In this document: positions 1,993 to 62,869 of the stretch, piece after piece
Layout of the letters: each line of letters starts with the position of its first letter
Position numbering within the stretch: position 1 is the first letter of the stretch
Source: Vicinamibacterales bacterium
GTDB taxonomy: Bacteria; Acidobacteriota; Vicinamibacteria; Vicinamibacterales; UBA2999
Length of the DNA stretch: 64,000 bases
Assembly (NCBI GenBank): GCA_050246635.1
Contig: JBFWVR010000009.1
Location: 11,807-75,806, forward strand
Direction: 5' to 3'
Translations under genes and position numbers: made by a program
Notes under the pieces: generated by a model
What the model was told of the DNA's origin: nothing
What the model saw: the letters and a program-made list of their open reading frames with translations, nothing else
Databases searched by the model: none

Positions 1993-2815
1993 AAAACCCT
2001 CTCTGCATGACCGCCGCGTCGAGGGGCAGGGTCGCGATGGCATCGAGGGCCGGGAGGGCGGGCCGTCCGGCGTACCGGCTGTCGACCGTCTTGATGTAGT
2101 GCTGGCAGGTCTGGCACGCCGCGACGCGATACGTGCCATCGGCGGTCGCGAGGCTGGTGATGCGCTCGCGGTCGGCCTCCCCGCAGAACGGGCAGGCGAT
2201 GGGATCGGTGGCCCAGCTGGTCTGGCAGCGGGCGCAGATGAGGCGGCGCTGCCCCTGCGGGGTGATCTGCGCCAGATCGGGCGCGGCCCCGCAGACCGGG
2301 CACGTGCGAGCCGTCCAGCCGTCGAAGCTCACGCGCTGCTGCAGCACCTCGGCCGCGCGCGCCAGGAACGGCCGGAGGGCCCAGGTCAGGACCTCACCCA
2401 GCATCTCGGCACCGGCCGTGTCGTCCGGTTCGCCACGGAACCATCGGGCCGCGCGCGCCGGCAGATCGGGTTCGCGCCCGAGGTCGTGCAGCCGCGCCGC
2501 CTCGCGGGCTTCGATGGCGTCGTGGCGCTTGAGGATGTCGGTGACCTGGCGGAAGACGAGGCGGGCCTCGGTCCAGTCGACCGGCAGCGCCTCGAAATCG
2601 ATCAGGGCGCGTCCCGCGGCCAGCCGGGCGCGCAGCTTCTCGTCGGGCAGGTCAATCCAGGTGGTCTGGACCCGGCCCCGGACGCGGCGTTCGGCGGCCA
2701 CGAGATCGGCCTGGAGCGCCGCGGGGCCGGCGAGTTGCTCGTTCTGCTCGGCCAGCGCATGGAGCTCGGCCAGCTCGCGCGGCATGCCTCGGGTGTTCCG
2801 GGGAGGGGAGGACAT
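1979..2815 (-). CDS. fdhE: FdhE-like protein (formate dehydrogenase accessory/maturation family)
   Basis: Four CxxC pairs occur in FdhE order (CPVCG...CARCQ...CPFCG...CQTCQHY) after a helical N-domain. I start at ATG 2815 (MSSPPRNTRG), because the upstream 30 codons of the track ORF translate the heptamer repeat. Confidence 0.7.
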   Translation of the reverse strand: MSSPPRNTRGMPRELAELHALAEQNEQLAGPAALQADLVAAERRVRGRVQTTWIDLPDEKLRARLAAGRALIDFEALPVDWTEARLVFRQVTDILKRHDAIEAREAARLHDLGREPDLPARAARWFRGEPDDTAGAEMLGEVLTWALRPFLARAAEVLQQRVSFDGWTARTCPVCGAAPDLAQITPQGQRRLICARCQTSWATDPIACPFCGEADRERITSLATADGTYRVAACQTCQHYIKTVDSRYAGRPALPALDAIATLPLDAAVMQRGFSNED

Positions 2816-10295: not shown

Positions 10296-12116
10296 ATGAG
10301 TAAGAGCGGATCGAAGGACACGAAGGTTCCGAAGGACACGAAGGGCACGAAGGGCACGAAGGGCACGACGGACGCCAGGGCCACGAAGAGCTCGAGGGCC
10401 GCGAAAGCCGTGAAGGTCCCGGACGACGCGATGGCCCCGGCGGCGGTGCCGGGCAGCGAGGGCGCGGAGGCGGCTGATGGGCGTCCCGCGCGGACCCAGG
10501 CGCCCGCGCCGCCCGCGGCGACACCCACCGCGGCGAAGCGCGTGCGCAAGGCGGCGGCCCCGAAACCGGCGGGGGCGGCGAAGGCGCCGACGCGGCCCGT
10601 CGCGGGCCTGCGTGTGCTGATGATCGCGTCGGAGGTGCACCCGTTCTCGAAGACCGGCGGCCTCGCCGATGTCGCGGCCGCGCTGCCTGTCGCGCTCGGG
10701 CGGCTCGGGCACGCCGTGACGGTCGTCACGCCGCGTTACCGCGGCGTCGACGCCGGCACGGACGCGGGCGCGGTCTCGATTGCGATGGCGGGGTACAGCT
10801 TCGACGTCACGCTCTCGGAGGTGTCGCTCGGGCCGGGCGCCCGCGTGCTGCTGGCCGACTGCCCGCCGCTTTTCAACCGCCCCGGGCTCTACAACGAGCA
10901 CAACGTCGACTACGGCGACAACCCCCTGCGATTCGCGGTCCTGATCCAGGCCGCGCTGCGGTGGGCGGCGGCGCAGCCCGACAGGTTCGATGTCGTGCAC
11001 GCGCACGACTGGCAGGCGGGGCTCGCGCCCGCCTACCTGCAGGCGGCGGGGGCACAGGCGCCGCTGGCGGGGACGCCGTCGGTGTTCACGATCCACAACA
11101 TCGCCTACCAGGGCGTGGTGGACAAGGACTGGGTGCCGCGGCTCGGGCTCGACTGGGCCGGCTTCCGGGCGGTCGACGGCTTCGAGTTCTGGGATCGCCT
11201 CAGCCTGCTGAAGGCGGGTGTCAACTTCGCCGACGCGGTCACCACCGTCAGCCCCACCTACGCGCTGGAGATCCAGCGGCCGGAGTTCGGCTACGGGTTC
11301 GACGGCGTCGTGCGGGCGCGGGCCGATCGGCTGGTCGGCATCCTGAACGGCATCGACACCACGGCCTGGGATCCAGCCCACGATCCGTACCTCCCGGTCC
11401 CGTTCACCGCCGACGACCTCTCGGGCAAGGTCGCGGCGAAGCGCGCCCTGCTCGAGCGCTTCGGGTTGCCGACCGACGAGGCGAGTCTCGCCCGGCCCGT
11501 GGTGGGGCTGGTGTCACGACTCGTCGACCAGAAGGGGTTCGACCTCATCGACGCGGCCGCGTCCCGCCTGCTGGAGCTCGACGCCACCTACGTGCTGGTC
11601 GGGTCCGGCGACGCGCGGTACGAGGACCTCTGGCGGCGGCTGGCCGAATGGCGGCCCGACCGGGTCGGCGTGTTCATCGGCTTCGACGAAGCGCGGGCGC
11701 ATCTCGTCGAGGGCGGTGCCGATCTGTTCCTCATGCCGTCGCGCTACGAGCCGTGCGGCCTGAACCAGATGTACTCGCTGCGCTACGGCACGGTGCCCGT
11801 CGTCCGGGCCGTCGGGGGGCTCGTGGACTCGGTCCGTCCGTACGAGCCCCGCGCCGGGCAGGGCACCGGGTTCCTCTTCAGCGAGTACCATCCCGAGGCG
11901 CTGGTGGACGCGGTGACGCGCGCGCTGGCGGCGTGGCAGGACCCGAAGATCCGGCAGCGCCTCCGGAAGAACGGGATGCGGAAGGACTTCTCCTGGGACC
12001 GTTCGGCGGCCGAGTATGTCAAGGTGTATAAAAGGGTGATTGCCCAGCGGCGCCGCGGGCCGGCCGGGGCGGGAAACCGCCGCGCGCCCGCGGCATCCAA
12101 CGGTTCGAGGGACTAA
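10296..12116 (+). CDS. glgA: glycogen synthase (GT5) with a ~110-aa Lys/Ala/Pro-rich N-terminal extension
   Basis: The core from LRVLMIASEVHPFSKTGGLADV to PSRYEPCGLNQMY matches GlgA hallmarks. The N-terminal extension keeps G/C-rich third positions. The stop TAA overlaps the trxA ATG (TAATG). Confidence 0.85.
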   Translation: MSKSGSKDTKVPKDTKGTKGTKGTTDARATKSSRAAKAVKVPDDAMAPAAVPGSEGAEAADGRPARTQAPAPPAATPTAAKRVRKAAAPKPAGAAKAPTRPVAGLRVLMIASEVHPFSKTGGLADVAAALPVALGRLGHAVTVVTPRYRGVDAGTDAGAVSIAMAGYSFDVTLSEVSLGPGARVLLADCPPLFNRPGLYNEHNVDYGDNPLRFAVLIQAALRWAAAQPDRFDVVHAHDWQAGLAPAYLQAAGAQAPLAGTPSVFTIHNIAYQGVVDKDWVPRLGLDWAGFRAVDGFEFWDRLSLLKAGVNFADAVTTVSPTYALEIQRPEFGYGFDGVVRARADRLVGILNGIDTTAWDPAHDPYLPVPFTADDLSGKVAAKRALLERFGLPTDEASLARPVVGLVSRLVDQKGFDLIDAAASRLLELDATYVLVGSGDARYEDLWRRLAEWRPDRVGVFIGFDEARAHLVEGGADLFLMPSRYEPCGLNQMYSLRYGTVPVVRAVGGLVDSVRPYEPRAGQGTGFLFSEYHPEALVDAVTRALAAWQDPKIRQRLRKNGMRKDFSWDRSAAEYVKVYKRVIAQRRRGPAGAGNRRAPAASNGSRD

Positions 12117-12442
12117 TGGCTACCGAAAAGATCAAGGTTCTGACCGACTCCGACTTCGGCGACTCCGTCAAGGACGGCGTCGTGCTCGTGGATTTCTGGG
12201 CCGAGTGGTGCGCGCCCTGCCGCCGCCTCGCCCCGACGGTCGACCAGCTGGCCGAGGAGTACGACGGCCGCGTGACCGTGGCGAAGGTCAACATCGACGA
12301 GAACCCGAAGACGCCGAGCGACTTCATGATTCGCGGCATCCCCACGCTCCTGCTGTTCAAGAACGGCGAGCTCAAGGAGACCGTCGTCGGGCTCGCCGCG
12401 AAGGACGACCTCGCGCAGATGCTCGACAAGCACCTCGCGTAG
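12116..12442 (+). CDS. trxA: thioredoxin
   Basis: 108 aa with the classic fold pattern VLVDFWAEWCAPCRRLAP...GIPTLLLFKNGE. The active site is CAPC rather than CGPC. Confidence 0.9.
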   Translation: MATEKIKVLTDSDFGDSVKDGVVLVDFWAEWCAPCRRLAPTVDQLAEEYDGRVTVAKVNIDENPKTPSDFMIRGIPTLLLFKNGELKETVVGLAAKDDLAQMLDKHLA

Positions 12443-12505
12443 GACCGCAGTGCGCGGGGCGCGGGCGGCTGCCCGCGCCCCGGCCCCCACCCCTTCCGGA
12501 GATCC

Positions 12506-13456
12506 ATGGACACCGAACGCCAGGTCATCATCATCGGCTCGGGCCCTGCCGGCCTGACGGCGGCGCTCTACACGGCGCGCGCCAACCTGAACCCGCTCGT
12601 CATCGAGGGCGTCGAGGCCGGGGGGCAGCTGATGCTGACCACGATGGTCGAGAACTGGCCCGGCTACCGCGACGGCATCATGGGCCCCGACCTGATGGCG
12701 GAGCTCAGGGCCCAGGCCGAGCGGTTCGGCGCCCAGATCATGCAGGGCGACGTCTCGTCCGTCGAGCTCGGATCACGGCCCTTCGCCGTCACGGTGGGGA
12801 AGACCCGCTACACCGCACAGGCGCTGATCGTCGCCACGGGGGCGTCGGCGAAGTGGCTCGATCTCGGCGTCGACAAGCGCCTCTCCGGCCGCGGCGTGTC
12901 GACGTGCGCCACCTGCGACGGGTACTTCTTCAAGGGCCGCCCGATCGCCGTCGTCGGCGGCGGCGACACCGCGATGGAGGAGGCGATCTACCTGTCGAAG
13001 CTCGCGACGCACGTGACGGTGATTCACCGCCGCGACGAGTTGCGTGCCTCGAAGGTGATGCAGGACAAGGCGATGGGCATGGGCAACATCTCCTTCCTGT
13101 GGAACACCGAGGTGCTCGACATCAAGGACGAGAGCGCCGGCGCAGTCACGAGCCTCGTGCTGCACAACAACAAGACCAACGAGCAGAGCGAGCTCGCCGT
13201 CGACGGCGTGTTCATCGCCATCGGCCACGTGCCGAACACGCAGCTGTTCCAGGGACAGCTGACGCTCGACGAGAACGGCTACATCCGCACCCACGACGGC
13301 TCGCGGACGAGCGTCGCCGGCGTCTTCGCGGCGGGGGACGTCCAGGATCACGTCTACCGCCAGGCGGTCACGGCCGCCGGCTCCGGCTGCATGGCTGCCA
13401 TCGACGCCGAGCGCTTCCTCGCGGGCACGGCCCACGAGTCGCCGGCGCACGTCTGA
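12506..13456 (+). CDS. trxB: thioredoxin-disulfide reductase
   Basis: 316 aa with FAD motif IIGSGPAGLTAA, redox-active CATCDG, NADPH motif VVGGGDTAMEEA and C-terminal GVFAAGDV. Confidence 0.9.
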   Translation: MDTERQVIIIGSGPAGLTAALYTARANLNPLVIEGVEAGGQLMLTTMVENWPGYRDGIMGPDLMAELRAQAERFGAQIMQGDVSSVELGSRPFAVTVGKTRYTAQALIVATGASAKWLDLGVDKRLSGRGVSTCATCDGYFFKGRPIAVVGGGDTAMEEAIYLSKLATHVTVIHRRDELRASKVMQDKAMGMGNISFLWNTEVLDIKDESAGAVTSLVLHNNKTNEQSELAVDGVFIAIGHVPNTQLFQGQLTLDENGYIRTHDGSRTSVAGVFAAGDVQDHVYRQAVTAAGSGCMAAIDAERFLAGTAHESPAHV

Positions 13457-13589: not shown

Positions 13590-14672
13590 TCATTCGATCC
13601 ACCCGCCTCCCAGCACTGCGTCCCCGTCGTAGAAGACCACCGCCTGTCCGGGCGTGATGGCGGTCTGCGGTTCGTCGAAGGTGAGCTCCGCGCGGGCGTC
13701 GTCCAGGGCACGGACGCGGGCGGGGGCGGCGCGGTGGCGGTGGCGCACCTGCGCCGTGACCCGCCGCCAGCCGTCGGGTGGGCCGCCCGCGATCCAGTTG
13801 ACGTCTGCTGCGGTCAGGCTCGCGCGATCGAGCGCGGCGCGCGGCCCGACGACGACGGCGGCGTCGGTGGGGCGGACTTCGAGGACGTAGAGCGGGACGG
13901 TGGAGGAGAGGCCCAGGCCCTTCCGCTGCCCCACCGTGAACCGGTGCACGCCCTCGTGCGTGCCGAGCACCGTGCCCTCCTGATCCAGGACCGGACCGGC
14001 GGTCGGGGCGTGACCAGACGCGCGCTCGATGAATCCCGCGTAGTCCCCGTCGGGCACGAAGCAGATTTCCTGGCTGTCCTTCTTGTCCGCGACGGCGAGG
14101 CCCAGGCGGCGGGCTTCGGCGCGCACGGCGTCCTTCGGGAGGTGGCCGACGGGGAAGAGGGCCTGGCGCAACTGGTCCTGCGTGAGGGGGAACAGGAAGT
14201 ACGACTGGTCCTTCGCCGGATCCGCGCCGCGGCGGAGGATCACGCGGCCGTCGTCCGACGCCTCCACGCGCGCGTAGTGGCCGGTGGCCAGGCGCGCGGC
14301 CCCGAGGCCCGCGGCCCGCTGGAGCAGCGTCTGGAACTTGACGTCGCTGTTGCAGCGCACGCAGGGAATCGGCGTGCGCCCGCCGACGTACTCATCGACG
14401 AAGTTCCGGACCACGTGCTGGTGGAATGGCGACTCGAAGTCGAGGATGTAGTGGGGGATGCCGAGCTGTCCCGCGACGCGCCGCGCGTCGTACAGGTCGT
14501 CCAGGGTGCAGCAGGTCCCGAACTGCGCCACCCCCGGTTCGCCGTCCGCCGCGCCGCCAGACTGGTCGTAGAGCTGCATCGACACACCGATCACCTCGTG
14601 ACCCTGCTCGGCGAGCAGCGCGGCGGCGACCGACGAATCGACGCCTCCCGACATCGCGACGACTATGCGCAT
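13590..14672 (-). CDS. mnmA: tRNA 2-thiouridine(34) synthase
   Basis: PP-loop MRIVVAMSGGVDSSVAA, catalytic-Cys region PIPCVRCN and QSYFLF; 360 aa starting at ATG 14672. The track ORF (to 14927) runs through the intergenic repeat. Confidence 0.9.
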   Translation of the reverse strand: MRIVVAMSGGVDSSVAAALLAEQGHEVIGVSMQLYDQSGGAADGEPGVAQFGTCCTLDDLYDARRVAGQLGIPHYILDFESPFHQHVVRNFVDEYVGGRTPIPCVRCNSDVKFQTLLQRAAGLGAARLATGHYARVEASDDGRVILRRGADPAKDQSYFLFPLTQDQLRQALFPVGHLPKDAVRAEARRLGLAVADKKDSQEICFVPDGDYAGFIERASGHAPTAGPVLDQEGTVLGTHEGVHRFTVGQRKGLGLSSTVPLYVLEVRPTDAAVVVGPRAALDRASLTAADVNWIAGGPPDGWRRVTAQVRHRHRAAPARVRALDDARAELTFDEPQTAITPGQAVVFYDGDAVLGGGWIE

Positions 14673-14705
14673 GGTGCGTCCGGGCCGATTGGGGATGCCA
14701 CCACT

Positions 14706-14889
14706 GAGGCACGGAGACACGGAGGCACGGAGCCGGGGACTCCGCTCTCGGATTGAAGGCTGATGGTTGGAGACCGCACGAAGGACATCCGGGAAAGTCT
14801 CAGCCGTCGGTGTTGTGCTCCCCCTGCCGAAAATCTCACATCTGAACTCTGCGATCGGAACCCCACGGCTCCGTGCCTCCGTGTCTCCG
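14706..14889. repeat. 24-nt perfect inverted repeat made of RCACGGAG tandem units, arms 130 nt apart
   Basis: cggagacacggaggcacggagccg (14712-14735) is exactly the reverse complement of cggctccgtgcctccgtgtctccg (14866-14889). It lies in the 256-nt spacer between the cysteine desulfurase and mnmA. Confidence 0.85.
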
Positions 14890-14928
14890 GGTCCCCGTGA
14901 CGCATTCCGGTTGACCTGTGGCGGCACT

Positions 14929-16095
14929 TCAACGGCGCCCGCCGACCGTGGTCAAGCCACGCAGCTTCGCGGCGATCGCGGGCATGACGGCGATGACGCG
15001 GTCGATGTCGGCCTCGGTCGTGGACGACCCGAGGCTGAAGCGCAGCGAGCCGAGCGTGCGGGCGTGGGGGAGCCCCATGGCCTTCAGCACGTGCGACGGC
15101 TCGAGCGTGCCGGACGAGCAGGCGGAGCCGGACGACACCGCGATGCCTTCGAGGTCGAGCGCGATGAGCAGCGACTCGCTCTCGAGCCGGTCGAAGCTCA
15201 GGTTCGTCGTGTTCGGCACGCGCGGATGGGTGGCGCCGTTCAGGCTCACGCCAGGCACGGCCGCCATCAGGCCTGCCTCCAGCCGATCACGAAGTGCCGC
15301 CTGCCTCGTGGCCTCGCGGGCCATCGACGCCCGCGCCGCGGTCGCGGCCGCGCCCATGCCGGCGATGGCCGGGACGTTCTCGGTGCCGGCGCGCCGGTTG
15401 CGTTCGTGCCGGCCGCCGGTCAGGTACGGGACGAGGCGCACGCCTCGGCGGATCCACAAGGCGCCCACGCCTTTCGGCCCGTAGAACTTGTGCGCGGAGA
15501 TCGACAGCAGGTCGACGCCGAGCGCCCGCACGTCGACGGGAATCTTGCCGGCCGTCTGGACCGCGTCGGTGTGCACCAGCGCGCCGCGGGCCTTCGCGAG
15601 CGCGGCCACCTCGGCCACCGGCTGGATCGTGCCGAGCTCGTTGTTGGCGTGCATCACCGACACGAGCGCGGTGTCGTCGGTGAGCGCCTCGGCCACCGCG
15701 TCGGGCGAGACGATGCCGGAGGGGCCGACAGGGAGGAACGTCACCTGCCAGCCGCGGCGGGCGAGCGCCTTCATCGTGTTCAACACGGCTTCGTGCTCGA
15801 TCGCGCTCGCGATCAGGTGGCGCCGGCCGGTGGGCTCGAGGGCCTCGGCCGCGCCCCGGATGGCCAGGTTGTCGCTCTCGGTCCCGCTGCCGGTGAAGAC
15901 CACCTCGGCGGGCTCGGCGCCGATCAGGGCGGCCACCTCGACCCGCGCATCGTCCATCACGGCCTTGGCCTGCTGGCCGAAGTGGTGGACGCTGGAGGCG
16001 TTGCCCCAGACGCGGGTCAGGATGTCGGTCATCCGGGCGGCGGCCGCCGGCCCGAGGGGCGTGGTGGCGTTGTGGTCGAGGTAGATGCGTGTCAC
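14929..16095 (-). CDS. cysteine desulfurase (NifS/IscS family, class V aminotransferase)
   Basis: RIYLDHNATTP N-terminus, PLP-lysine block SAHKFYGPKGVGALWI and active-site loop SSGSACSSG. I prefer the GTG 16095 start (VTRIYLD); the track uses TTG 16146. It sits upstream of mnmA, a typical sulfur-relay pairing. Confidence 0.85.
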   Translation of the reverse strand: MTRIYLDHNATTPLGPAAAARMTDILTRVWGNASSVHHFGQQAKAVMDDARVEVAALIGAEPAEVVFTGSGTESDNLAIRGAAEALEPTGRRHLIASAIEHEAVLNTMKALARRGWQVTFLPVGPSGIVSPDAVAEALTDDTALVSVMHANNELGTIQPVAEVAALAKARGALVHTDAVQTAGKIPVDVRALGVDLLSISAHKFYGPKGVGALWIRRGVRLVPYLTGGRHERNRRAGTENVPAIAGMGAAATAARASMAREATRQAALRDRLEAGLMAAVPGVSLNGATHPRVPNTTNLSFDRLESESLLIALDLEGIAVSSGSACSSGTLEPSHVLKAMGLPHARTLGSLRFSLGSSTTEADIDRVIAVMPAIAAKLRGLTTVGGRR

Positions 16096-16267
16096 GGCTG
16101 AATCCGGCTCGTCCCCGATCGTAGCATTGCCCCTAACCCTCAGCAATAAAAGGACTAGACAACCCTCGAGACCCGTTCATATACTGGCAGCGCTTCAGGC
16201 GCGAAGCCCCTTTCCCCGGGTTTCTTAACGGCACCCTCGGCGCACCAGCGGAGGGGGAGGATTCAAG

Positions 16268-16813: not shown

Positions 16814-16879
16814 GCGCGCCGGTTCATCCACATTGTGTTGCGCGCGCGGCGGGCTCGTCCCGCCGCGTGTCCTGTGTCC

Positions 16880-17551
16880 ATGTCCGGCGCTTCCCGTTCC
16901 CTGTTCTCCTTCCTGGGCGGCCGGCGTTCCACGGAACCCGAGCCCTCGACGGTCGTCGCCCCCGCGACGAGCCCGCAGGACGACCCGACCCATCCCACCA
17001 AGGCGCTCGCGCGCTTCCTGAAGGTGCTGCAGAGCCACGAGCGGCCCGCGCTCATCGACCTCGGGCCCGTGGTCGGCAGCAACGTGACCTTCTTCGGCGA
17101 GCAACTGGGCTGCAAGATTCGCGTCGAGGACATCGCGTCCGAGATCGAACGGCACCTCAAGGCGGGGACCATCGAGGCCCTGCCCGCGGCGCTCGAGGCG
17201 CGGTTCCCCGAGGGCGGTGACGGGGTGGACGGCATCCTGTGCTGGGATGTGTTCGACTATCTCGAGCGCCCCGCCGCCCAGGCCCTGGCCAGCGCCCTCG
17301 TGCGCCGGCTGAATCCCGGCGGCGTGCTGCTCGGCCTGTTCAGCACGACCAACCCCACCGACGAGACCTACACGAAGTTCGTCGTCGTGGACGAGCAGAC
17401 CCTGAGGTACCGGCCGTACCACGCGTCGCGGCCGCGGCAGAAGAGCCTGCTCAATCGCGACGTGACGAAGCTCTTCGACGGGCTCGAGGTCACCGAGTCG
17501 TTCCTGATGAAGAACAACGTGCGGGAGACGCTGCTCCGCAAGCCCGAGTAG
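16880..17551 (+). CDS. hypothetical protein, class I SAM-methyltransferase-like fold
   Basis: Weak motif I (ALIDLGPVVGSN), post-I acidic residue (VEDI), GILCWDVFDYL and LNPGGVLLGLF. I prefer the ATG 16880 start (MSGASRSLF); the track starts at 16835. Confidence 0.5.
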   Translation: MSGASRSLFSFLGGRRSTEPEPSTVVAPATSPQDDPTHPTKALARFLKVLQSHERPALIDLGPVVGSNVTFFGEQLGCKIRVEDIASEIERHLKAGTIEALPAALEARFPEGGDGVDGILCWDVFDYLERPAAQALASALVRRLNPGGVLLGLFSTTNPTDETYTKFVVVDEQTLRYRPYHASRPRQKSLLNRDVTKLFDGLEVTESFLMKNNVRETLLRKPE

Positions 17552-18044
17552 GCCTCGCCCCTTCGGGGCTCGGTAGGCCGGCCGCTTCGCGGCCGTTGGG
17601 ACTCGTGCTCGCGGGTTCGCGCGTCGCACTTCGCTCGGACTCGCCATCGCTGCGCTCGGCTCGCTCGGAGGACGCTTCGCGTTCCCGCCGGCCTTCGCCA
17701 CGCTGCGGCCCGCGCGCCGAGCGATAGCGAGCCGCCCTCCTAGCGAGGGCCGAAGGCCCTGGTCCGAGCGACGTGCGATGCGCGAGCCCGCGAGCACGAG
17801 TCCCAGCGAGCCGCGCAGCGGCGAGTCCCAGCGATGTGCGACGCGTGGACCAGCGACCCTTCGACTTCGCTCAGGGTCGCCCCGCGCGCCGTCGAGGGGC
17901 GAGCACGAGTCCCAGCGAGCCGAGCGCAGCGACGGCGAGTCCTACCGAGGCCGCGCAGCGGCCGAGGCCCACCGAAGGCCACACGCCGAGCGCAGCGAGG
18001 CGGCCCACCGGCTGCGAAGCAGCCGGCAGTAGTACCATTCCCCA
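17552..18044. repeat. GC-rich composite palindromic element, copy 1 of a 3-member family
   Basis: 43-nt inverted arms at 17598-17640 / 17762-17804 (3 mismatches; the outer 18 nt, gggactcgtgctcgcggg, are perfect). Direct repeat gcgagcacgagtcccagcgagccg at 17790-17813 and 17899-17922. It shares the words ctcggtaggcc, gttgggactcgt and gagtcccagcga with 61418-61771. Confidence 0.85.
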
Positions 18045-38152: not shown

Positions 38153-38768
38153 GCGGGCCCGCGGGCTGCTCTTCATCGTCTCGGCGCCCTCGGGCACGGG
38201 CAAGACGACGCTGGTCGAGCGGCTCGTGCAGATCCTGCCGAACCTGCGCATGTCGCGGTCGTACACCTCGCGGGCCGCCCGCACCGGCGAGCGCGACGGC
38301 GTGGACTATAATTTCATCTCCCGCACCGAGTTCCTCGTGATGGCCGACCAGGGCCTGTTCCTCGAGTGGGCCGACGTCTTCGGCAACTGCTACGGGACGG
38401 CCCGTCCCGACGTCGAGCGCCTGCTGGCGGCGGGGCAGGACGTCGTGCTCGTCATCGACGTGCAGGGCGCCCGGCAGGTCAAGGCCTGCGGGATCGATCA
38501 CACGGCGATCTTCGTGATGCCGCCGTCCTTCCAGGTGCTCGAACAGCGCCTGCGGGGGCGCAGCAAGGACACGGAGGAGCAGATGCAGCGCCGCCTGCAG
38601 ACCGCGCGTGACGAGGTCTCGAGCTACGCGGAGTACGACTACGTCGTCATCAACGACGCGCTGGAGGCCACGGTCGTGCGGCTGCAGGAGATCATCGCGG
38701 CCGAACGATCGCGCACCCACCGGATGCGTGGCGCCGTCACCGAGATCATCCGCACCTTCGGGATCTGA
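38142..38768 (+). CDS. gmk: guanylate kinase
   Basis: P-loop SAPSGTGKTTLV, YTSRAARTGERDGVDYNF and EWADVFGNCYGT blocks. It overlaps the yicC end by 11 nt. Confidence 0.9.
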   Translation: MSSRRARGLLFIVSAPSGTGKTTLVERLVQILPNLRMSRSYTSRAARTGERDGVDYNFISRTEFLVMADQGLFLEWADVFGNCYGTARPDVERLLAAGQDVVLVIDVQGARQVKACGIDHTAIFVMPPSFQVLEQRLRGRSKDTEEQMQRRLQTARDEVSSYAEYDYVVINDALEATVVRLQEIIAAERSRTHRMRGAVTEIIRTFGI

Positions 38769-52427: not shown

Positions 52428-53789
52428 TCACAGCTTGTACCGCTCCAGGCGCCGGTAGAGGGCGCTGCGCGACAATCCGAGCGCCCGGGCCGCCTGGCTC
52501 ACGTTGCCGTAGCGGGCCATGGCCTTCTTGATCAGGAACGCCTCGACGTCCTCGAGGCTCATGTCCTCGAGCCGCGCGGCGCTGGTGCCGTCCACCCGGA
52601 GGCCGAGGTCGGAGGCGCGGATCGCGGAGCCGCCGGCCATCAGCACCGCCCGCTCCACGGCGTGGTCGAGCTCGCGCACGTTACCGGGCCAGCGGTGGTC
52701 GAGCAGCATCTGCATGGCGGCCGGGTCGAACCCGCCGATGGCCTTCCGGTACCGCTGGGCGTGCTGCCGCAGGAAGTGCCGCGCGAGCAGCGGGATGTCC
52801 TCGCGGCGATCCCGCAGCGGCGGCAGGTGGATCTCGATCGTGTTCAGCCGGAAGAGCAGGTCCTGGCGGAAGCGGCCGGCATCGACCTCCGCGTTGAGAT
52901 CCGCGTTGGTCGCCGAGACGAGGCGCACGTTGACCTTGCGGGTCTTCGAGGATCCGAGGCGCTCGAACTCGCCGGTCTCGATCACCCGCAGCAGCTTCTG
53001 CTGCTGGCCGAGGGGCACGTTGGCAATCTCGTCGAGGAACAGCGTGCTGCCGTCCGCGAGCTCGAAGCGGCCGACCCGATCCGCCTTCGCGTCGGTGAAG
53101 GCGCCCTTGACGTGGCCGAAGAGCTCCGACTCGAAGACGCCCTCGGCCATCCCGCCCGCGTTCACGGTGACGATGGGACGCGGGGCGCGCGGGGAGACGG
53201 CGTGCAGGGCCTGGGCGACCAGGCTCTTGCCGGTGCCGTTCTCGCCGGTCACGAGCACGTTCGCGTCGGACGGGCCGACACGCGCGATGATCTCCAGCAC
53301 CGGCCGCATGGCCGCCGACTCGGCGAGCAGCGGCGAGTGGCCGTCGGCCATCAGCGCCTGGCTGGCGGCCTCGAGCTGGCGGCCCCGCCGCAGCGCCCGG
53401 CCGAGCTCGGTCTGCGTGCGCAGGATCGAGAGGAGTCGATCGTTCTCCCACGGCTTCTGGATGAAGTCCCGGGCGCCGCGCCGCATGGCCTCGACCGCCA
53501 CGTTGACCGATCCCCACGCCGTCATCACCACGAGGGGCAGCGATTCGTCGGCGGTGTGCACGCGCTGCAGCAGCTCGAGCCCTTCCTCGCCCGAGGTCGT
53601 GTCGCGCGCGTAGTTCAGGTCCATCAGCACGACGTCGTAGTCGCGGGCCTCGAGCGCCCGGAGGATCTGGTGCGGCGACGCGGCCGTGTCGATCGCGTAT
53701 CCCTCCGGCTTGAGCAGCAGGCGCAGGGCCTCGAGCACGTCCGCCTGGTCGTCGGCGATCAGGACGCGGGGGGGCGCCTCAGTCCTCAT
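52428..53789 (-). CDS. sigma-54-dependent response regulator (NtrC family enhancer-binding protein)
   Basis: Receiver domain (VLIADDQ...DVVLMDLNY), AAA+ domain (GENGTGKS, GAFTDA sigma-54 contact loop, ESELFGH, VRLVSATN) and C-terminal Fis-type HTH (AARALGLSRSALYRRL). Confidence 0.9.
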   Translation of the reverse strand: MRTEAPPRVLIADDQADVLEALRLLLKPEGYAIDTAASPHQILRALEARDYDVVLMDLNYARDTTSGEEGLELLQRVHTADESLPLVVMTAWGSVNVAVEAMRRGARDFIQKPWENDRLLSILRTQTELGRALRRGRQLEAASQALMADGHSPLLAESAAMRPVLEIIARVGPSDANVLVTGENGTGKSLVAQALHAVSPRAPRPIVTVNAGGMAEGVFESELFGHVKGAFTDAKADRVGRFELADGSTLFLDEIANVPLGQQQKLLRVIETGEFERLGSSKTRKVNVRLVSATNADLNAEVDAGRFRQDLLFRLNTIEIHLPPLRDRREDIPLLARHFLRQHAQRYRKAIGGFDPAAMQMLLDHRWPGNVRELDHAVERAVLMAGGSAIRASDLGLRVDGTSAARLEDMSLEDVEAFLIKKAMARYGNVSQAARALGLSRSALYRRLERYKL

Positions 53790-59326: not shown

Positions 59327-60706
59327 GTGGGAGGCTCCGCCACCGTGCGCGTCGCGATCATTTCGGACACCCATTTCGGCGACGACCTCTGCACCCTGGT
59401 CGGCGAGCGTGTGGACGGCGGACCGATTCAGCTCGGCCCGGGCTACGAGGCGCTCCGCCGCGCGATCGGCCGCGTGGACTACCTCGTCCTGCTCGGCGAC
59501 ATCCTCGACTTCTCGGTGGCCTCCTACGAGACCGCCTACCGGCATGCGAAGGTCTTCTTCAGCCGCCTCCAGCAGGATCAGGTCGCCGGCCAGTTCATCT
59601 ACATCCCGGGAAACCACGACTTCGACATCTGGCACATCGTCGAGCACCAGGTGAACGTCATCAACCAGCTCAAGCAGGGCGAGTTGCCGCGCGCGTTCAA
59701 GCGTTCGGTGCCGGGCGTGCTGGACGACCGGCGGCCGGACCCGGCGGAGAAGTTCACGTTGCCCGACGTCGCCGCCAAGCCGGAGTGGCACGACAACCGT
59801 ACGAAGTACGGGAACCTGTTCCTCGACCACATCACCCGCCGCCGATCGCGCGACCGTGCCTCCCGCGCCGAGGGGCGCAAGCTCACGTTCAACTTCGCCT
59901 ACCCGAACCTGTACCTGGTCAGCGACACCGGCGAGTCGGTGCTCGTCACGCACGGCCACTACTTCGAGGCGTACTGGGCGATGGCGTCGGACTGGCTGAT
60001 GCACTTCGCCGCCGACCACGTGCCGCTCGAAAAGCCGGGTGAGCCGAACCTGCAGGAGCTGGTCGGGATGAACCTGCCGCTCACCCAGCTCGCCTGCACC
60101 GGCATCGGCCAGGCGCAGCCGCTGACGGAGCTCGTGCGCGCCGTGCAGCGGGAGATCGCGGCAGGCCGGGTCGGCGTGCTGGCACAGTGCCTCGATCGCC
60201 TCGAGGCGCGGGTCCTCGACGAGCGGCGTCACTTGTCACGCATGCGGCGCGCCGCGGAACGCCACGTCCTGGGCTGGCTGAAGCGCTGGCTGCTGTCGAC
60301 CCTGGCCACGACCGAACCGGCGCGTTACAGCCGCCTGTTCCTGCAGCACCCGCGGGTCCGGGATCGTTTCCAGCGATACTTCCGCTACAGCCTGAACGAG
60401 ATTCGCCAGTTGTCGCGTGAGCACGGCATCGACCTGCCGGTGCCGACCCACGTCGTCTTCGGCCACACCCACCAGCCAATCGCGTGGGGGGCCGACGAAC
60501 TGGTGGACCACGTGGACGGGCACCCGGTCCGCTTCTGCAACACCGGGGGCTGGTTGCGGCGCGAAGAGCCGGACGGGCGCACGAGCTTCGTCGGGGCCGA
60601 GGTCGTGCTCTACGAGTCGGGTCGCGGATTCCGCTCGGTGACCGTGACGGAGGCTGATGTGGCAGCAGGCGTGGGGAAGGATCGGCAGCTGGCGCTTGCG
60701 CTGTAA
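59327..60706 (+). CDS. metallophosphoesterase family protein with a large insertion
   Basis: Calcineurin-like motifs occur in order: ISDTHFG (DxH), LLGDILD (GD), PGNHDF (GNHD), THGH and FGHTH (GHxH), with about 200 aa inserted before the last motif. The start is GTG 59327 or GTG 59345. Confidence 0.75.
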   Translation: MGGSATVRVAIISDTHFGDDLCTLVGERVDGGPIQLGPGYEALRRAIGRVDYLVLLGDILDFSVASYETAYRHAKVFFSRLQQDQVAGQFIYIPGNHDFDIWHIVEHQVNVINQLKQGELPRAFKRSVPGVLDDRRPDPAEKFTLPDVAAKPEWHDNRTKYGNLFLDHITRRRSRDRASRAEGRKLTFNFAYPNLYLVSDTGESVLVTHGHYFEAYWAMASDWLMHFAADHVPLEKPGEPNLQELVGMNLPLTQLACTGIGQAQPLTELVRAVQREIAAGRVGVLAQCLDRLEARVLDERRHLSRMRRAAERHVLGWLKRWLLSTLATTEPARYSRLFLQHPRVRDRFQRYFRYSLNEIRQLSREHGIDLPVPTHVVFGHTHQPIAWGADELVDHVDGHPVRFCNTGGWLRREEPDGRTSFVGAEVVLYESGRGFRSVTVTEADVAAGVGKDRQLALAL

Positions 60707-60718
60707 GCTGGACGCATC

Positions 60719-61417
60719 GTGCGCCCGGAGGATCTCCCGCTCAGGCACCGCCTGCTCATTGCCGCCTACCGCTGGCGCGTGCCGGCGCCCCTCCCCGCGT
60801 CGCGTCTGGCGCGTCCGGTCCACCAGGCCCGGGTTGCGCTCGTCACGACGGCCGGGCTGGTGCCGCCGGGAGCGGTCCCGTTCGATACCTCCCTCCGCGG
60901 CGGCGATCCGTCCTTCCGCATCATTGCGGCAGACACGCCGATCGGCCGCCTCGAGGAACATCACCGCAGTGACGCGTTCGACCACGAGCCCATGGCGCGC
61001 GACCGGAACGTCGCGTTTCCGCTCGACCGGCTCCACGACCTGGCGTCCGCCGGCGCCATTGGCGCGGTCGCGCCACGTCACCTGTCGTTCATGGGCTCGA
61101 TCACCGCACCGGGACGGCTGCGTGACGAGACGGCGCCGGCGGCCGCCGGCCTGTTGGCCGACGACGCGGTGGACATCGCGCTGCTGGCTCCCGTTTGACC
61201 GTTCTGTCACCAGACCGTGTGTCTGGTCCAGCGTGCGCTCGAGGAGCGGGGCATCGTCACGGTCTCGGTGTCGTTGATGCCGGAGATCACGCGCCGGTTC
61301 GCGCCGTCGCGCTGGCTGGCGACGGGCTTCGGCCTGGGCCAGCCGTTCGGTGAGCCGGGCGACGTGGCGGGGCAGGAGGGAATCTTGCGGGAGATGCTGG
61401 CGCTGGCGGAGGCGTAA
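60719..61417 (+). CDS. glycine/sarcosine/betaine/D-proline reductase selenoprotein B (GrdB/PrdB)-family protein, predicted selenocysteine at in-frame TGA 61196-61198
   Basis: Track ORFs 60719-61198 and 61217-61417 are in the same frame (offset 498 nt), separated only by one TGA. The read-through product has 232 residues: ...RVALVTTAGLVPPG...GDPSFRII...DRNVAFPLDRL...HLSFMGSI...DIALLAPV-U-PFCHQTVCLVQRALEERGIVTV.... The U-x-x-C context and the N-terminal blocks match my memory of the GRDB family. A SECIS-like hairpin follows the TGA. Confidence 0.7.
61204..61231 (+). promoter_or_regulatory. candidate bacterial SECIS element
   Basis: The main stem is 7 bp: ACCAGAC (61209-61215) / GTCTGGT (61221-61227). 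The apical loop is CGUGU (61216-61220). The stem extends by CUG (61204-61206) / CAG (61229-61231) across a small internal loop. The stem starts 11 nt after the UGA and the loop 18 nt after it. Confidence 0.5.
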
Positions 61418-61771
61418 GCCTCGCGCTGCGCGCTCGGTAGGCCTCGGCGGCTGCGCCGCCTCGTTGGGACTCGTCCCTCGCTTCGCTCGGGCTCGCTGGG
61501 ACTCGGCGCCTTCGGCGCCTCGCTGGGAGCCGGGCTCTCACTTCGCTTCCGCCGCGCCGCCGGCGCGGCGTCCCAGCGAGGCCGCGCAGCGGCCGAGTCC
61601 CAGCGACGTCCGATGCGAGGAACCCGCGAGGACGAGTCCCAGCGAGTCGCGTGAGCGACGAGTCCGAACGAGGCGGCGCAGCCGCCGAGGCCTACCGAGC
61701 GCAGCGAGGCCCAAAGAGGCGGCGAAGCCGGCGCGGCCCACCGAGCCCCGAGCGACGTCGAGGGCGAGGCC
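61418..61771. repeat. GC-rich long imperfect palindrome, copy 3 of the 3-member family
   Basis: 36-nt perfect inverted arms at 61430-61465 / 61667-61702 (core gctcggtaggcctcggcggctgcgccgcctcgtt). The match continues inward imperfectly through ctcgctgggactcg / cgagtcccagcgag words to a centre near 61550. It fills the spacer between convergent genes. Confidence 0.85.
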
Positions 61772-62869
61772 CTACGGCACCAGCGAGTCCCACAAGGCGG
61801 GATCCGTAACGCCCTCGGTCACGAACACGAGGACCCGCGAACCGGGGCCCAGGCCGAGGGCCTGTTTGGCCTCAGCCAGATCGGGATCGTGCAGCGCGGC
61901 CAGGAGGCCGCCGAGTGCCGCGCCGCCGGATGCGCCGGCGCGAATCGCCGGGTCCGCTCCGCTCGGGCGCGCGAGGCGGCGCATCCCTTCGACCGCCCAC
62001 TCGTCGTCGATTGCCAGATAGGCATCGACGATGGGGTGGAGCGCCCTGAAGGCGAGGGGAGAGACGTCCCCACAGCGCAGGCCCGCCATGATCGTCGTCA
62101 GTGGACCGGTCACGTGCGATGGGGCACCGGCGCGTGCGGACTCGAGCAGGCACGCCGCGCTCGATGGCTCGACGCAGACCACGGCCGGCCGGCGATCGCC
62201 GTGGCGCCAGGCCACCCAGCTCGCGGCGGCGGCCACGAGGCCCCCCACGCCTCCCTGGACGAAGATCGTGTCGGGCCCGCCACCCCAGTCGCGCTCGGCT
62301 TCGTCCAGCAGCCGCGTGTAGCCGAGCATGATGCGGCGGGGAATCTCGTCGTACCCGTCCCACGAGGTGTCCGACACCACCACCCACCCCTCGCGCGCCG
62401 CGTCGTGGGCCATCTGCCGCACCGCATCGTCATACGTGCCGGCGACGCGCACGACGGTCGCGCCCTCGTCTTCGATAGCGGCGGCGCGCGGCGCGGCGGC
62501 GGTCGCGGCCATGTAGACACGGCAGGGGCAGCCAGCCTCGCGCGCCGAGCGCGCCACGGCCCGCCCATGGTTGCCCTCGCTGGCGCAGGCGATGACGGTC
62601 CCCGGGGCCAGGATGCCGTCCTGCAGCAGGCTGTCGACCGCGAAGCGCGTGCCGGCGCCCTTGAAGGCGTTCAGGCCGAAGCGGCCGGACTCGTCCTTGG
62701 CCCAGATGGCGCGCAGGCCGAGCAGGCGCGCGAGTCCCGGCAGCCGCCGGAGGGGCGTGGGCCGCAGGTCGGGCCTTGCCGCGAAGAAGGCGCGTTGCCT
62801 TGCGTAGTCGGCGTCGTCGAAGAGGCCGGCTGCGGCGGGACGCGGTGGCGGGACGTAGGTGAATGACAC
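61772..62869 (-). CDS. dpaL: diaminopropionate ammonia-lyase (PLP-dependent, YgeX/DpaL-like)
   Basis: KDESGRFGLNAFKGAG (PLP-lysine block, compare E. coli KDESHRFGLNAFKMLGG), SEGNHGRAVA, VVSDTSWDGY, IMLGY, VQGGVGG, VVCVEP, TIMAGLRCG and GASGGA. It is collinear with YgeX as I remember it. GTG start at 62869. Confidence 0.85.
   Translation of the reverse strand: MSFTYVPPPRPAAAGLFDDADYARQRAFFAARPDLRPTPLRRLPGLARLLGLRAIWAKDESGRFGLNAFKGAGTRFAVDSLLQDGILAPGTVIACASEGNHGRAVARSAREAGCPCRVYMAATAAAPRAAAIEDEGATVVRVAGTYDDAVRQMAHDAAREGWVVVSDTSWDGYDEIPRRIMLGYTRLLDEAERDWGGGPDTIFVQGGVGGLVAAAASWVAWRHGDRRPAVVCVEPSSAACLLESARAGAPSHVTGPLTTIMAGLRCGDVSPLAFRALHPIVDAYLAIDDEWAVEGMRRLARPSGADPAIRAGASGGAALGGLLAALHDPDLAEAKQALGLGPGSRVLVFVTEGVTDPALWDSLVP

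Follow-up and report, generated by a model that had tools for sequence, protein, structure and literature searches.

Background

The closest described relatives of the gene considered here are the characterised reductase subunits PrdB, GrdB, GrdF and GrdH. Where such systems have been characterised, the genes prdA, prdB and prdC form a cluster. Zhang, Fomenko and Gladyshev (2005, PMC1088965) ranked 'Proline reductase PrdB' third in abundance among the selenoprotein families of the Sargasso Sea, with 42 selenocysteine (Sec) forms and 1 Cys form. Zhang and Gladyshev (2008, PMC2398784) placed PrdB (pfam07355, UxxC) among the top families of the Global Ocean Sampling (GOS) data, with 235 Sec and 110 Cys forms. 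Both surveys report that such genes are mis-annotated as truncated open reading frames (ORFs) (PMC1088965, PMC2398784). In reviews from 2022 and 2026 the sole entry is still 'D-proline reductase, TIGR04483, UxxC'. This work concerns a PrdB-like gene at positions 60719-61417 of a 64,000-nucleotide stretch of DNA, which we call the window. The window has a G+C content of 71% and comes from a 210,610-bp contig of a metagenome-assembled genome of Vicinamibacterales (Acidobacteriota), where the GenBank record shows two coding sequences (CDSs) in place of one gene. We are confident that these are a single genuine Sec-encoding gene with a selenocysteine insertion sequence (SECIS) hairpin just 3' of its UGA. 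The fuller statement, that the product is also a redox enzyme of the UxxC type and not a proline reductase, we consider likely, with a little more reserve.

A single gene across the UGA

The frame begins with GTG at 60719, meets TGA at 61196-61198 and then runs on without a further stop until TAA at 61415-61417. An original prediction, made from the letters of the DNA alone, held that the two ORFs called here are one gene in one frame, and we agree. Read-through gives 159 residues, Sec (U) and 72 more, a product of 232 residues with the context DIALLAPV-U-PFCHQTVCLVQRALEERGIVTV (residues around Sec: DIALLAPV-U-PFCHQTVCLVQ). We annotate 60719-61417 on the plus strand, the strand of all the features of this gene, as a complete PrdB-like selenoprotein CDS of 232 codons plus TAA with Sec at codon 160. 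This annotation uses the alignment to TIGR04483 across the UGA and the start shared with homologues, one of which (P0002) begins at the same MRPEDLPL... position as the window protein. The Sec codon at 61196-61198 opens a U-P-F-C redox motif and is assigned from Cys in full-length homologues and TGA in related loci. The TGT codon at 61205-61207 encodes Cys163, the putative resolving Cys of the UxxC, in a column that is invariant in three alignments. The C-terminal 72 codons (61199-61414), which would be read only if Sec is inserted, have coding-like substitutions and are homologous to the C-termini of the Cys-type proteins.

The composition of the DNA agrees with a single gene. The G+C content at third codon positions is 0.85 in the 40 codons 5' of the TGA and 0.93 in the 40 codons 3' of it, which bears out the earlier claim that G/C-rich third positions continue past the TGA. 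Only 3 TGA codons in the 64 kb, including 61196, have coding-like composition on both flanks. The other two were considered as second Sec codons and rejected: the TGA at 38766 is an ordinary boundary between gmk (guanylate kinase) and coaBC, and that at 52430 is the boundary between the genes of a sigma-54 response regulator and a histidine kinase.

The GenBank record divides the gene into MGE3276330.1, a 159-aa 'glycine/sarcosine/betaine reductase selenoprotein B family protein', and MGE3276331.1, a 66-aa 'hypothetical protein' at 61217-61417. The six codons between the TGA and the second GTG start chosen by GenBank encode an invariant P-x-C-[HN]-Q. Conservation of this kind is not to be expected of untranslated codons, and we conclude that the region 3' of the UGA is translated in the same frame.

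The homologues make the same point on a larger scale. A search of 5.8 billion proteins found 2,456 relatives, and the figures given here are for the best 120 of the 2,456. These fall into 64 stubs of 146-174 aa, about 65% identical to the window protein, and 56 proteins of 243-292 aa, about 48-52% identical. All seven of the stubs that were aligned finish at ...LLxPV. The original prediction expected Sec or Cys at the UGA column, and Cys is found there in 15 of the 16 aligned full-length homologues (PV-C-PxC-[HN]-Q). The sixteenth, P0008, with Arg at the active-site column (PV-R-R-T-C-H-E), may have lost its activity or gained a new function.

Among 185,579 species-representative genomes a scan detected 470 relatives, the best 80 of which supply the locus counts. 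The column holds TGA in 79 of the best 80 loci and TGC in one (L087, Bryobacteraceae). The hosts of TGA-type genes include Acidobacteriota (Vicinamibacterales, Thermoanaerobaculia, Holophagae, Bryobacterales), Myxococcota, Gemmatimonadota, Nitrospirota, Binatia and others. The Cys-type loci are 14 metagenome loci and L087. In L087 the TGC stands where near-identical relatives (L086, L073, L064) have TGA, and L087, which groups within TGA-type Bryobacterales, seems to have changed from Sec to Cys only recently.

The original prediction had also proposed in-frame conservation of 61199-61417 as a check on the read-through, and that conservation is plain. Not one of 132 distinct TGA-type genes has a stop in the 36 codons past the TGA, and their actual stop comes 66-128 residues after it. 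Pairwise divergence at the three codon positions is 0.365, 0.228 and 0.552 downstream of the TGA and 0.273, 0.258 and 0.589 upstream. The downstream divergence peaks at third positions, as it does in coding sequence.

The SECIS hairpin

The hairpin is ACCAGAC-CGUGU-GUCUGGU, with a core at 61209-61227 on the plus strand made of a stem (61209-61215 with 61221-61227) and the loop CGUGU (61216-61220), assigned from pairing, covariation and a covariance model. The original prediction described a 7-bp stem and a 5-nt loop with SECIS geometry eleven nucleotides after the UGA. The geometry has held up well. The stem does start at the eleventh nucleotide after the UGA, and the spacer is therefore 10 nt and not 11 (61199-61208: the codons for P-F-C plus the first base of H). 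A 3-bp extension of the stem is present in this sequence as described, but it is not conserved, with 58% pairing across 79 sequences, and we reject this lower stem as part of the SECIS.

We judged the geometry by the published bacterial model (bSECISearch; PMC13188914, Fig. 2), and the hairpin at 61209-61227 falls within every limit of that model. The apical loop is 5 nt (3-9 nt allowed) and the upper stem 7 bp (4-16 bp allowed). A G is required in loop positions 1-2, and here it is at position 2, followed by U. The distance from UGA to apical loop is 17 nt (16-37 nt allowed), and the free energy is -8.9 kcal/mol (-7.5 kcal/mol or lower required).

The stronger argument is comparative. The hairpin occurs in the same register in essentially every TGA-type gene, and its 7-bp helix is 98.2% paired across 79 distinct sequences. 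Sliding the 3' arm by 1-3 columns lowers the pairing to 41% or less. Within these 79 sequences, pair 21-37 is C-G in 55 and U-A in 21, and pair 25-33 is A-U in 59, G-C in 14 and U-A in 5. In one set of compensations the synonymous third position of a His/Asn codon is coupled to position 1 of a Val/Ile codon; in another, position 1 of a Thr/Ala/Ser codon is coupled to a third position that is synonymous. It follows that RNA structure shapes codon choice here, and even the choice of amino acid. The G at loop position 2 is invariant in 124 of 124 loops.

The Cys-type genes, which encode a similar peptide (HQAAGLL), serve as a control. All 7 pairs are kept in 93 of 122 TGA-type genes; the Cys-type genes keep 4-6 of the 7 and never all of them. 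The median free energy of the stem is -8.5 kcal/mol in TGA-type genes versus -3.4 kcal/mol in Cys-type genes (Mann-Whitney p = 5e-7). A covariance model built from 78 elements of other species, with the window and its nearest relative held out, scores 61196-61231 at 55.1 bits (E 4.6e-11). This is its only significant match in the window, and the next-best score is 11.4 bits (E about 1). A sequence-only model from the same alignment gives 41.1 bits, so that structure adds 14 bits. Sites in Cys-type genes score 7.5-17.8 bits. Rfam holds no bacterial SECIS family to score against, and scans with Rfam, at gathering thresholds over the whole window and permissively over 61100-61320, returned only a tRNA and noise. 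We conclude from these comparisons that the hairpin at 61209-61227 is a conserved, functional-looking bacterial SECIS that is degraded in Cys-type genes. In L087 (10466-10501) the 3' arm of the old SECIS has CUA for CUG, which disrupts the stem, and the model still scores it at 30.7 bits.

Protein family, motif and structure

The original prediction assigned the product to the GRDB family, and that assignment is sound. Pfam PF07355 (GRDB) matches with 26.0 and 27.7 bits against a gathering threshold of 22, from about residue 31 to 156 and over model positions 220-344 of 347. The 347-position model ends at the residue just before Sec160. This suggests that PF07355 was built from, or bounded by, sequences truncated at the UGA, which would help to perpetuate truncated annotations. 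TIGR04483 (PrdB, 238 positions) aligns residues 28-228 with model positions 21-216, across the UGA (E 3e-38).

It is important to realize that the protein reaches the equivalog cutoff of no characterised subunit. It scores 131.5 bits against a cutoff of 300 for PrdB (TIGR04483), 36.9 against 800 for GrdF, 29.8 against 775 for GrdH and 25.6 against 602 for GrdB (TIGR01917). The Grd models match only at about 219-411, and the N-terminal half of GrdB is absent. By sequence the window protein is a PrdB-like member of the GRDB/PrdB superfamily.

The redox motif is U160-P-F-C163-H-Q-T, a UxxC without the third Cys of UxxCxxC, and Cys168 of the window protein is not conserved. The VTTAG, SFR, FPLDRL and SFMG blocks named in the original prediction (there with FPxDRL) are present and conserved. 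Ten polar residues are invariant or nearly so: D63, R67, S84, D88, H89, D95, N97, R104, S123 and S127. This conservation suggests a defined substrate pocket rather than a generic redoxin. In an AlphaFold model of P0005, a Cys homologue with 52% identity (pLDDT 91.7, pTM 0.91), the fold is an alpha/beta protein, and the Cys equivalent to Sec (Cys161) is placed between a strand (154-158) and a helix (164-177). Such a helix-cap position is typical of redox-active CxxC and UxxC centres.

Gene context

Immediately upstream on the plus strand is a gene for a calcineurin-like metallophosphoesterase (59327-60706; PF00149, 42.5 bits), which ends 12 nt before the GTG and is probably co-transcribed with the PrdB-like gene. 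Downstream and convergent is a diaminopropionate ammonia-lyase (61772-62869, minus strand; NF006058, 374 bits against a cutoff of 276). Farther out the window holds a MacAB-type efflux system, a sigma-54 two-component pair, a pyrophosphatase, Sua5 and housekeeping genes. Repeats with a unit of about 46 nt, in either orientation, fill the intergenic stretch between the PrdB-like and ammonia-lyase genes (61420-61770); for example, two 50-nt arms at 61430-61479 and 61653-61702 are 96% complementary. Within the window the 30-nt core of these repeats is found at this site only. They may be an element resembling a repetitive extragenic palindrome (REP) or a miniature inverted-repeat transposable element (MITE), or else a bidirectional terminator array.

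We compared 43 of the 52 called genes in the window with Pfam or NCBIfam, the other nine being six short ORFs (64-181 aa) and three genes named only from N-terminal motifs. PrdA, PrdC and GrdA/C/D/E are not among the 43 genes scanned, in line with the original prediction that the window holds no Grd or PrdA partner. When the neighbours in 153 related loci were clustered, with no PrdA sequence as a probe, the recurrent ones likewise included no PrdA, PrdC or Grd gene. The same clustering gave no universal partner, and several of its top clusters are antisense shadow ORFs.

Four recurrent contexts can be distinguished. A Na+/alanine symporter is directly upstream in 12 loci of the Vicinamibacterales type (context a). 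The arrangement seen in the window (context b) is narrower: the upstream phosphoesterase is syntenic only with L036 and L035, and the ammonia-lyase arrangement is common to L036, L030, L031 and L010. A larger array (context c) occurs in about 25 loci from Myxococcota, Binatia, Gemmatimonadota, Bryobacterales and unassigned metagenome contigs. It consists of a flavin adenine dinucleotide (FAD) disulfide oxidoreductase of the NF004991 type, TIGR04282, TIGR04283, the PrdB-like gene and often the radical S-adenosylmethionine (radical-SAM) (seleno)protein ArsS, and these genes are ordered in at least four ways. Five of these loci also have an ArsM-like methyltransferase close by, and two have a glutaredoxin-domain protein. 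ArsS lies 9 kb or less from the gene in 11 loci, and any of the ArsS, TIGR04282 and TIGR04283 genes is present in 25. Cys-type loci (context d) begin with a TrsS/Tes-like radical-SAM gene, followed by a DVU_1556/ArsM-like methyltransferase and then the PrdB-like gene, and in one of them (L088) the FAD oxidoreductase is convergent. This oxidoreductase is the most persistent neighbour of all. It is found in 23 loci of both Sec and Cys types and in several arrangements, within about 8 kb and mostly 4 kb or less from the gene.

Two Myxococcota loci show the array best. In L013 (2946-8427) the Sec-type gene leads an operon that also holds TIGR04282 (143 bits, cutoff 134) and TIGR04283 (203 bits, cutoff 182), flanked by ArsS (TIGR04167, 439 bits, cutoff 300) and a DedA-fused FAD oxidoreductase. 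In L050 (3258-11668) the order is an NF004991 FAD oxidoreductase (739 bits, cutoff 620), a TIGR04282/TIGR04283 fusion, the Sec-type PrdB-like gene and a glutaredoxin-domain protein, with an ArsM-like methyltransferase about 6 kb upstream.

Points against a selenoprotein and alternative explanations

Several observations weigh against the reading we prefer. Taken as a single sequence, the 71-nt fold around the hairpin is no more stable than its shuffles (z = -0.35), which is no better than chance. As many as 16.7% of the 1,255 TGA triplets in the window precede a hairpin within the published limits, and 6.9% precede one at least as good as ours. The hairpin alone is weak evidence because 7-17% of the TGA triplets in the window pass the same test, and its significance comes from the comparative data, not from the single sequence. 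Those data have limits of their own. The observed covariation was reached by none of 500 shuffles, a shuffle-based statistic that kinship among the sequences inflates. The potential to form the hairpin is also partly imposed by the conserved H-Q-T-V-x-L-V peptide, and Cys-type genes hold about 5 of the 7 pairs. A search for a further selenoprotein gene in the window found none. tRNA-Sec was not found in the window or in 60 related loci, and tblastn with E. coli SelA, SelB and SelD found no selA, selB or selD in the window or in about 160 related loci, apart from a selD fragment in L100. Comparison with the Protein Data Bank gave no relative, the best values being E 0.34 for sequence and TM 0.34 for fold. 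We also count on this side the selenenyl-sulfide cycle and its reductant, described below, which we infer by analogy. Sec decoding in this genome is likewise something we infer from the pattern of conservation.

Could the TGA be a true stop? The product would then be a truncated protein of 159 residues, perhaps accompanied by a separate peptide of 66, or the locus would be a decaying pseudogene. The GenBank, JGI and ENA pipelines annotate a stop here, searches of the window turned up no Sec machinery, and TGA is an ordinary stop elsewhere in the window. Against this, more than 120 distinct genes, spread over several phyla, keep the TGA, the frame and the P-x-C-H/N-Q-x codons with synonymous variation, Cys replaces the TGA in the full-length proteins, and the hairpin covaries. 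A pseudogene should have stops or frameshifts downstream, and 0 of 132 genes show any. We regard a true stop as very improbable. It is somewhat easier to imagine, yet still improbable in our opinion, that the gene is a genuine PrdB of a D-proline reductase, or of a related amino-acid reductase, with a partner of the PrdA or GrdE type elsewhere in the genome. TIGR04483 is the best NCBIfam match over nearly the whole length (E 3e-38), the Sec motif is the UxxC listed for PrdB and GrdB, JGI labels many homologues 'D-proline reductase (dithiol) PrdB', and some neighbours are related to amino acids (the Na+/alanine symporter in 12 loci, diaminopropionate ammonia-lyase in 5). However, 131.5 bits is far from the equivalog cutoff of 300, PrdA, PrdC and Grd genes are missing both from the scanned genes of the window and from the recurrent neighbours of the 153 loci, and the gene is carried by Acidobacteriota, Myxococcota and Gemmatimonadota of soil and water rather than by Stickland fermenters.

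The alternative that deserves most thought accepts the selenoprotein and differs about its role. The protein could be a selenol/thiol reductase of the ArsS/TIGR04282/TIGR04283 'arsenosugar biosynthesis' cassette, acting on organo-arsenic or other metalloid compounds and recycled by the FAD oxidoreductase, with the window copy unlinked from the cassette. The stand-alone PrdB-like protein would then be the Sec/Cys reductase module of a widespread organo-metalloid pathway and not an amino-acid reductase. That pathway would comprise ArsS, the TIGR04282 and TIGR04283 glycosyltransferases and ArsM-like methyltransferases, and would draw electrons from the NF004991-type FAD oxidoreductase. The operon of L013 and the gene order of L050, with its ArsM-like gene upstream, argue for this, as do the cassette genes in 25 loci, in at least four arrangements and several phyla, with ArsS in 11. 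The Cys-type loci add a radical-SAM gene, an ArsM/DVU_1556-like methyltransferase and a convergent FAD oxidoreductase. On the other hand, no cassette gene is present in the window, about 70% of the loci with enough flank lack cassette genes, and one Vicinamibacterales subclade has a Na+/alanine symporter upstream instead. The 'arsenosugar' names of TIGR04282 and TIGR04283 are themselves derived from context, the radical-SAM and methyltransferase neighbours of the Cys-type genes score below their family cutoffs, and the literature searched holds no link between PrdB-like proteins and ArsS. We therefore treat the cassette role, and each part of the pathway just outlined, as an unlikely but serious possibility, and we continue to prefer a Sec-encoding gene for a redox UxxC enzyme of other function than proline reduction.

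Proposed mechanism

Comparison of the related genes shows that UGA160 is recoded with the help of the hairpin at 61209-61227. The hairpin, with its 7-bp stem and 5-nt loop, would form just 3' of UGA160 while the ribosome reads that codon. By analogy with E. coli fdhF, the loop would recruit the complex of SelB, GTP and Sec-tRNA(Sec), and Sec would be inserted without termination. Dependence of this decoding on SelB is expected from the same analogy.

In the folded protein Sec160 and Cys163 are predicted to make up a U-x-x-C centre that caps an alpha-helix at its N-terminal end. Judging by the motif, by the model and by PrdB and GrdB as precedents, the selenolate of Sec160 would attack the substrate and Cys163 would resolve the adduct to give a selenenyl-sulfide. 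This would be reduced again by a dithiol or an NAD(P)H-dependent system, for example thioredoxin or an FAD disulfide oxidoreductase of the kind commonly encoded beside homologues in other lineages. The chemistry of proline and glycine reductases needs a pyruvoyl group from PrdA or GrdE. The window protein is most likely not a proline or glycine reductase, because no pyruvoyl-bearing PrdA or GrdE partner and no other Stickland component is encoded among the scanned genes of the window or the recurrent neighbours in related loci, and it probably acts on a different small-molecule substrate.

Other observations in the window and related loci

At 12116-13456 on the plus strand are adjoining genes for a thioredoxin (PF00085, 108 bits) and a protein of the thioredoxin-reductase type (Pyr_redox_2, 185 bits). 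This pair, 48 kb away, is a possible generic reductant for the UxxC selenoprotein. Beside it are MnmA (13590-14927) and a gene resembling class-V aminotransferases and cysteine desulfurases (14929-16146). At 1979-2905 on the minus strand there is a weak match to the central domain of FdhE, a formate-dehydrogenase accessory protein (28.3 bits, cutoff 27). If this match is real, a formate dehydrogenase, an enzyme that often contains Sec, may lie beyond the start of the window.

On the short metagenome contig L100, a Cys-type PrdB-like gene is followed directly by the selD (selenophosphate synthetase) fragment (2355-2612, plus strand), which is 56% identical to E. coli SelD. L073 and L067 gave weak SelB matches, which most likely represent translational GTPases of another kind. 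A 94-nt 'tRNA-Gly (ccc)' called by ARAGORN at 17464-17557 on the minus strand is almost certainly a false positive, because it lies inside a well-supported plus-strand CDS (16835-17551) and is not seen by Rfam.

Significance

As annotated, the one gene appears as two, a 'selenoprotein B family protein' cut short and a 'hypothetical protein', and the relatives of 159-160 aa in GenBank, JGI and ENA have apparently been treated likewise. Annotation pipelines are unable to place the Sec because no NCBIfam model reaches its cutoff. A model specific to this family, with a Sec exception, would fix hundreds of genomes. The family is among the commonest selenoproteins of oxic soils and waters, and its closest members nearly all have Sec rather than Cys. 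The label 'proline reductase' is probably wrong because the partner that defines proline and glycine reductases is absent from the gene neighbourhoods surveyed. The recurrent linkage to the FAD disulfide oxidoreductase and the ArsS cassette is a testable lead toward function. It is conceivable, if rather doubtful, that contexts c and d point to the metabolism of small metalloid molecules of the arsenic type, a connection not visible at the window locus itself.

Comparison with known systems

The window gene belongs to a known kind of selenoprotein, because PrdB-type UxxC proteins were catalogued in 2005 and 2008, and the PrdB family of those surveys is very probably the same broad family. Both have pfam07355, UxxC, an excess of Sec over Cys (79:1 in the closest genomes here), oxic habitats and truncated annotation. 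The survey sequences differ in being marine. The survey papers filed the family as proline reductase without asking about PrdA, and they describe no gene context. Four features seem to be unreported in the literature searched: the stand-alone status of the gene, its near-exclusive use of Sec in soil phyla, the clade-specific SECIS and the linkage to FAD oxidoreductase and ArsS-cassette genes.

PrdB of Clostridium sticklandii and Clostridioides difficile is the nearest characterised protein. The homology is nearly full-length (232 residues against a 238-position model), and in both the Sec is in a UxxC and the UGA is followed by a hairpin inside the coding sequence. The window protein corresponds to PrdB (26 kDa), that is, to the C-terminal half of GrdB. 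Unlike PrdB, it scores less than half the TIGR04483 cutoff and has no PrdA pyruvoyl proprotein or PrdC/D/E/F nearby. The hosts here are aerobic or facultative soil and aquatic phyla, and the neighbours are unrelated (the metallophosphoesterase here; the FAD oxidoreductase, the ArsS cassette or the alanine symporter elsewhere). With GrdB, GrdF and GrdH (PF07355; TIGR01917, NF040794, NF040795) it has in common a homologous C-terminal domain, Sec at the equivalent point and UxxC. It differs from them in lacking about 215 N-terminal residues and the third Cys, in scoring 25-37 bits against cutoffs of 600-800, and in having no GrdA/C/D/E genes among the scanned genes of the window.

The SECIS can be compared with the bacterial consensus and with E. 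coli fdhF. Unlike the fdhF element, the window hairpin has no bulged U in its stem, no sequence similarity and no conserved lower stem. Like it, the hairpin is in the coding sequence just 3' of the UGA, and its 10-nt spacer is close to the 11 nt of the minimal fdhF element.

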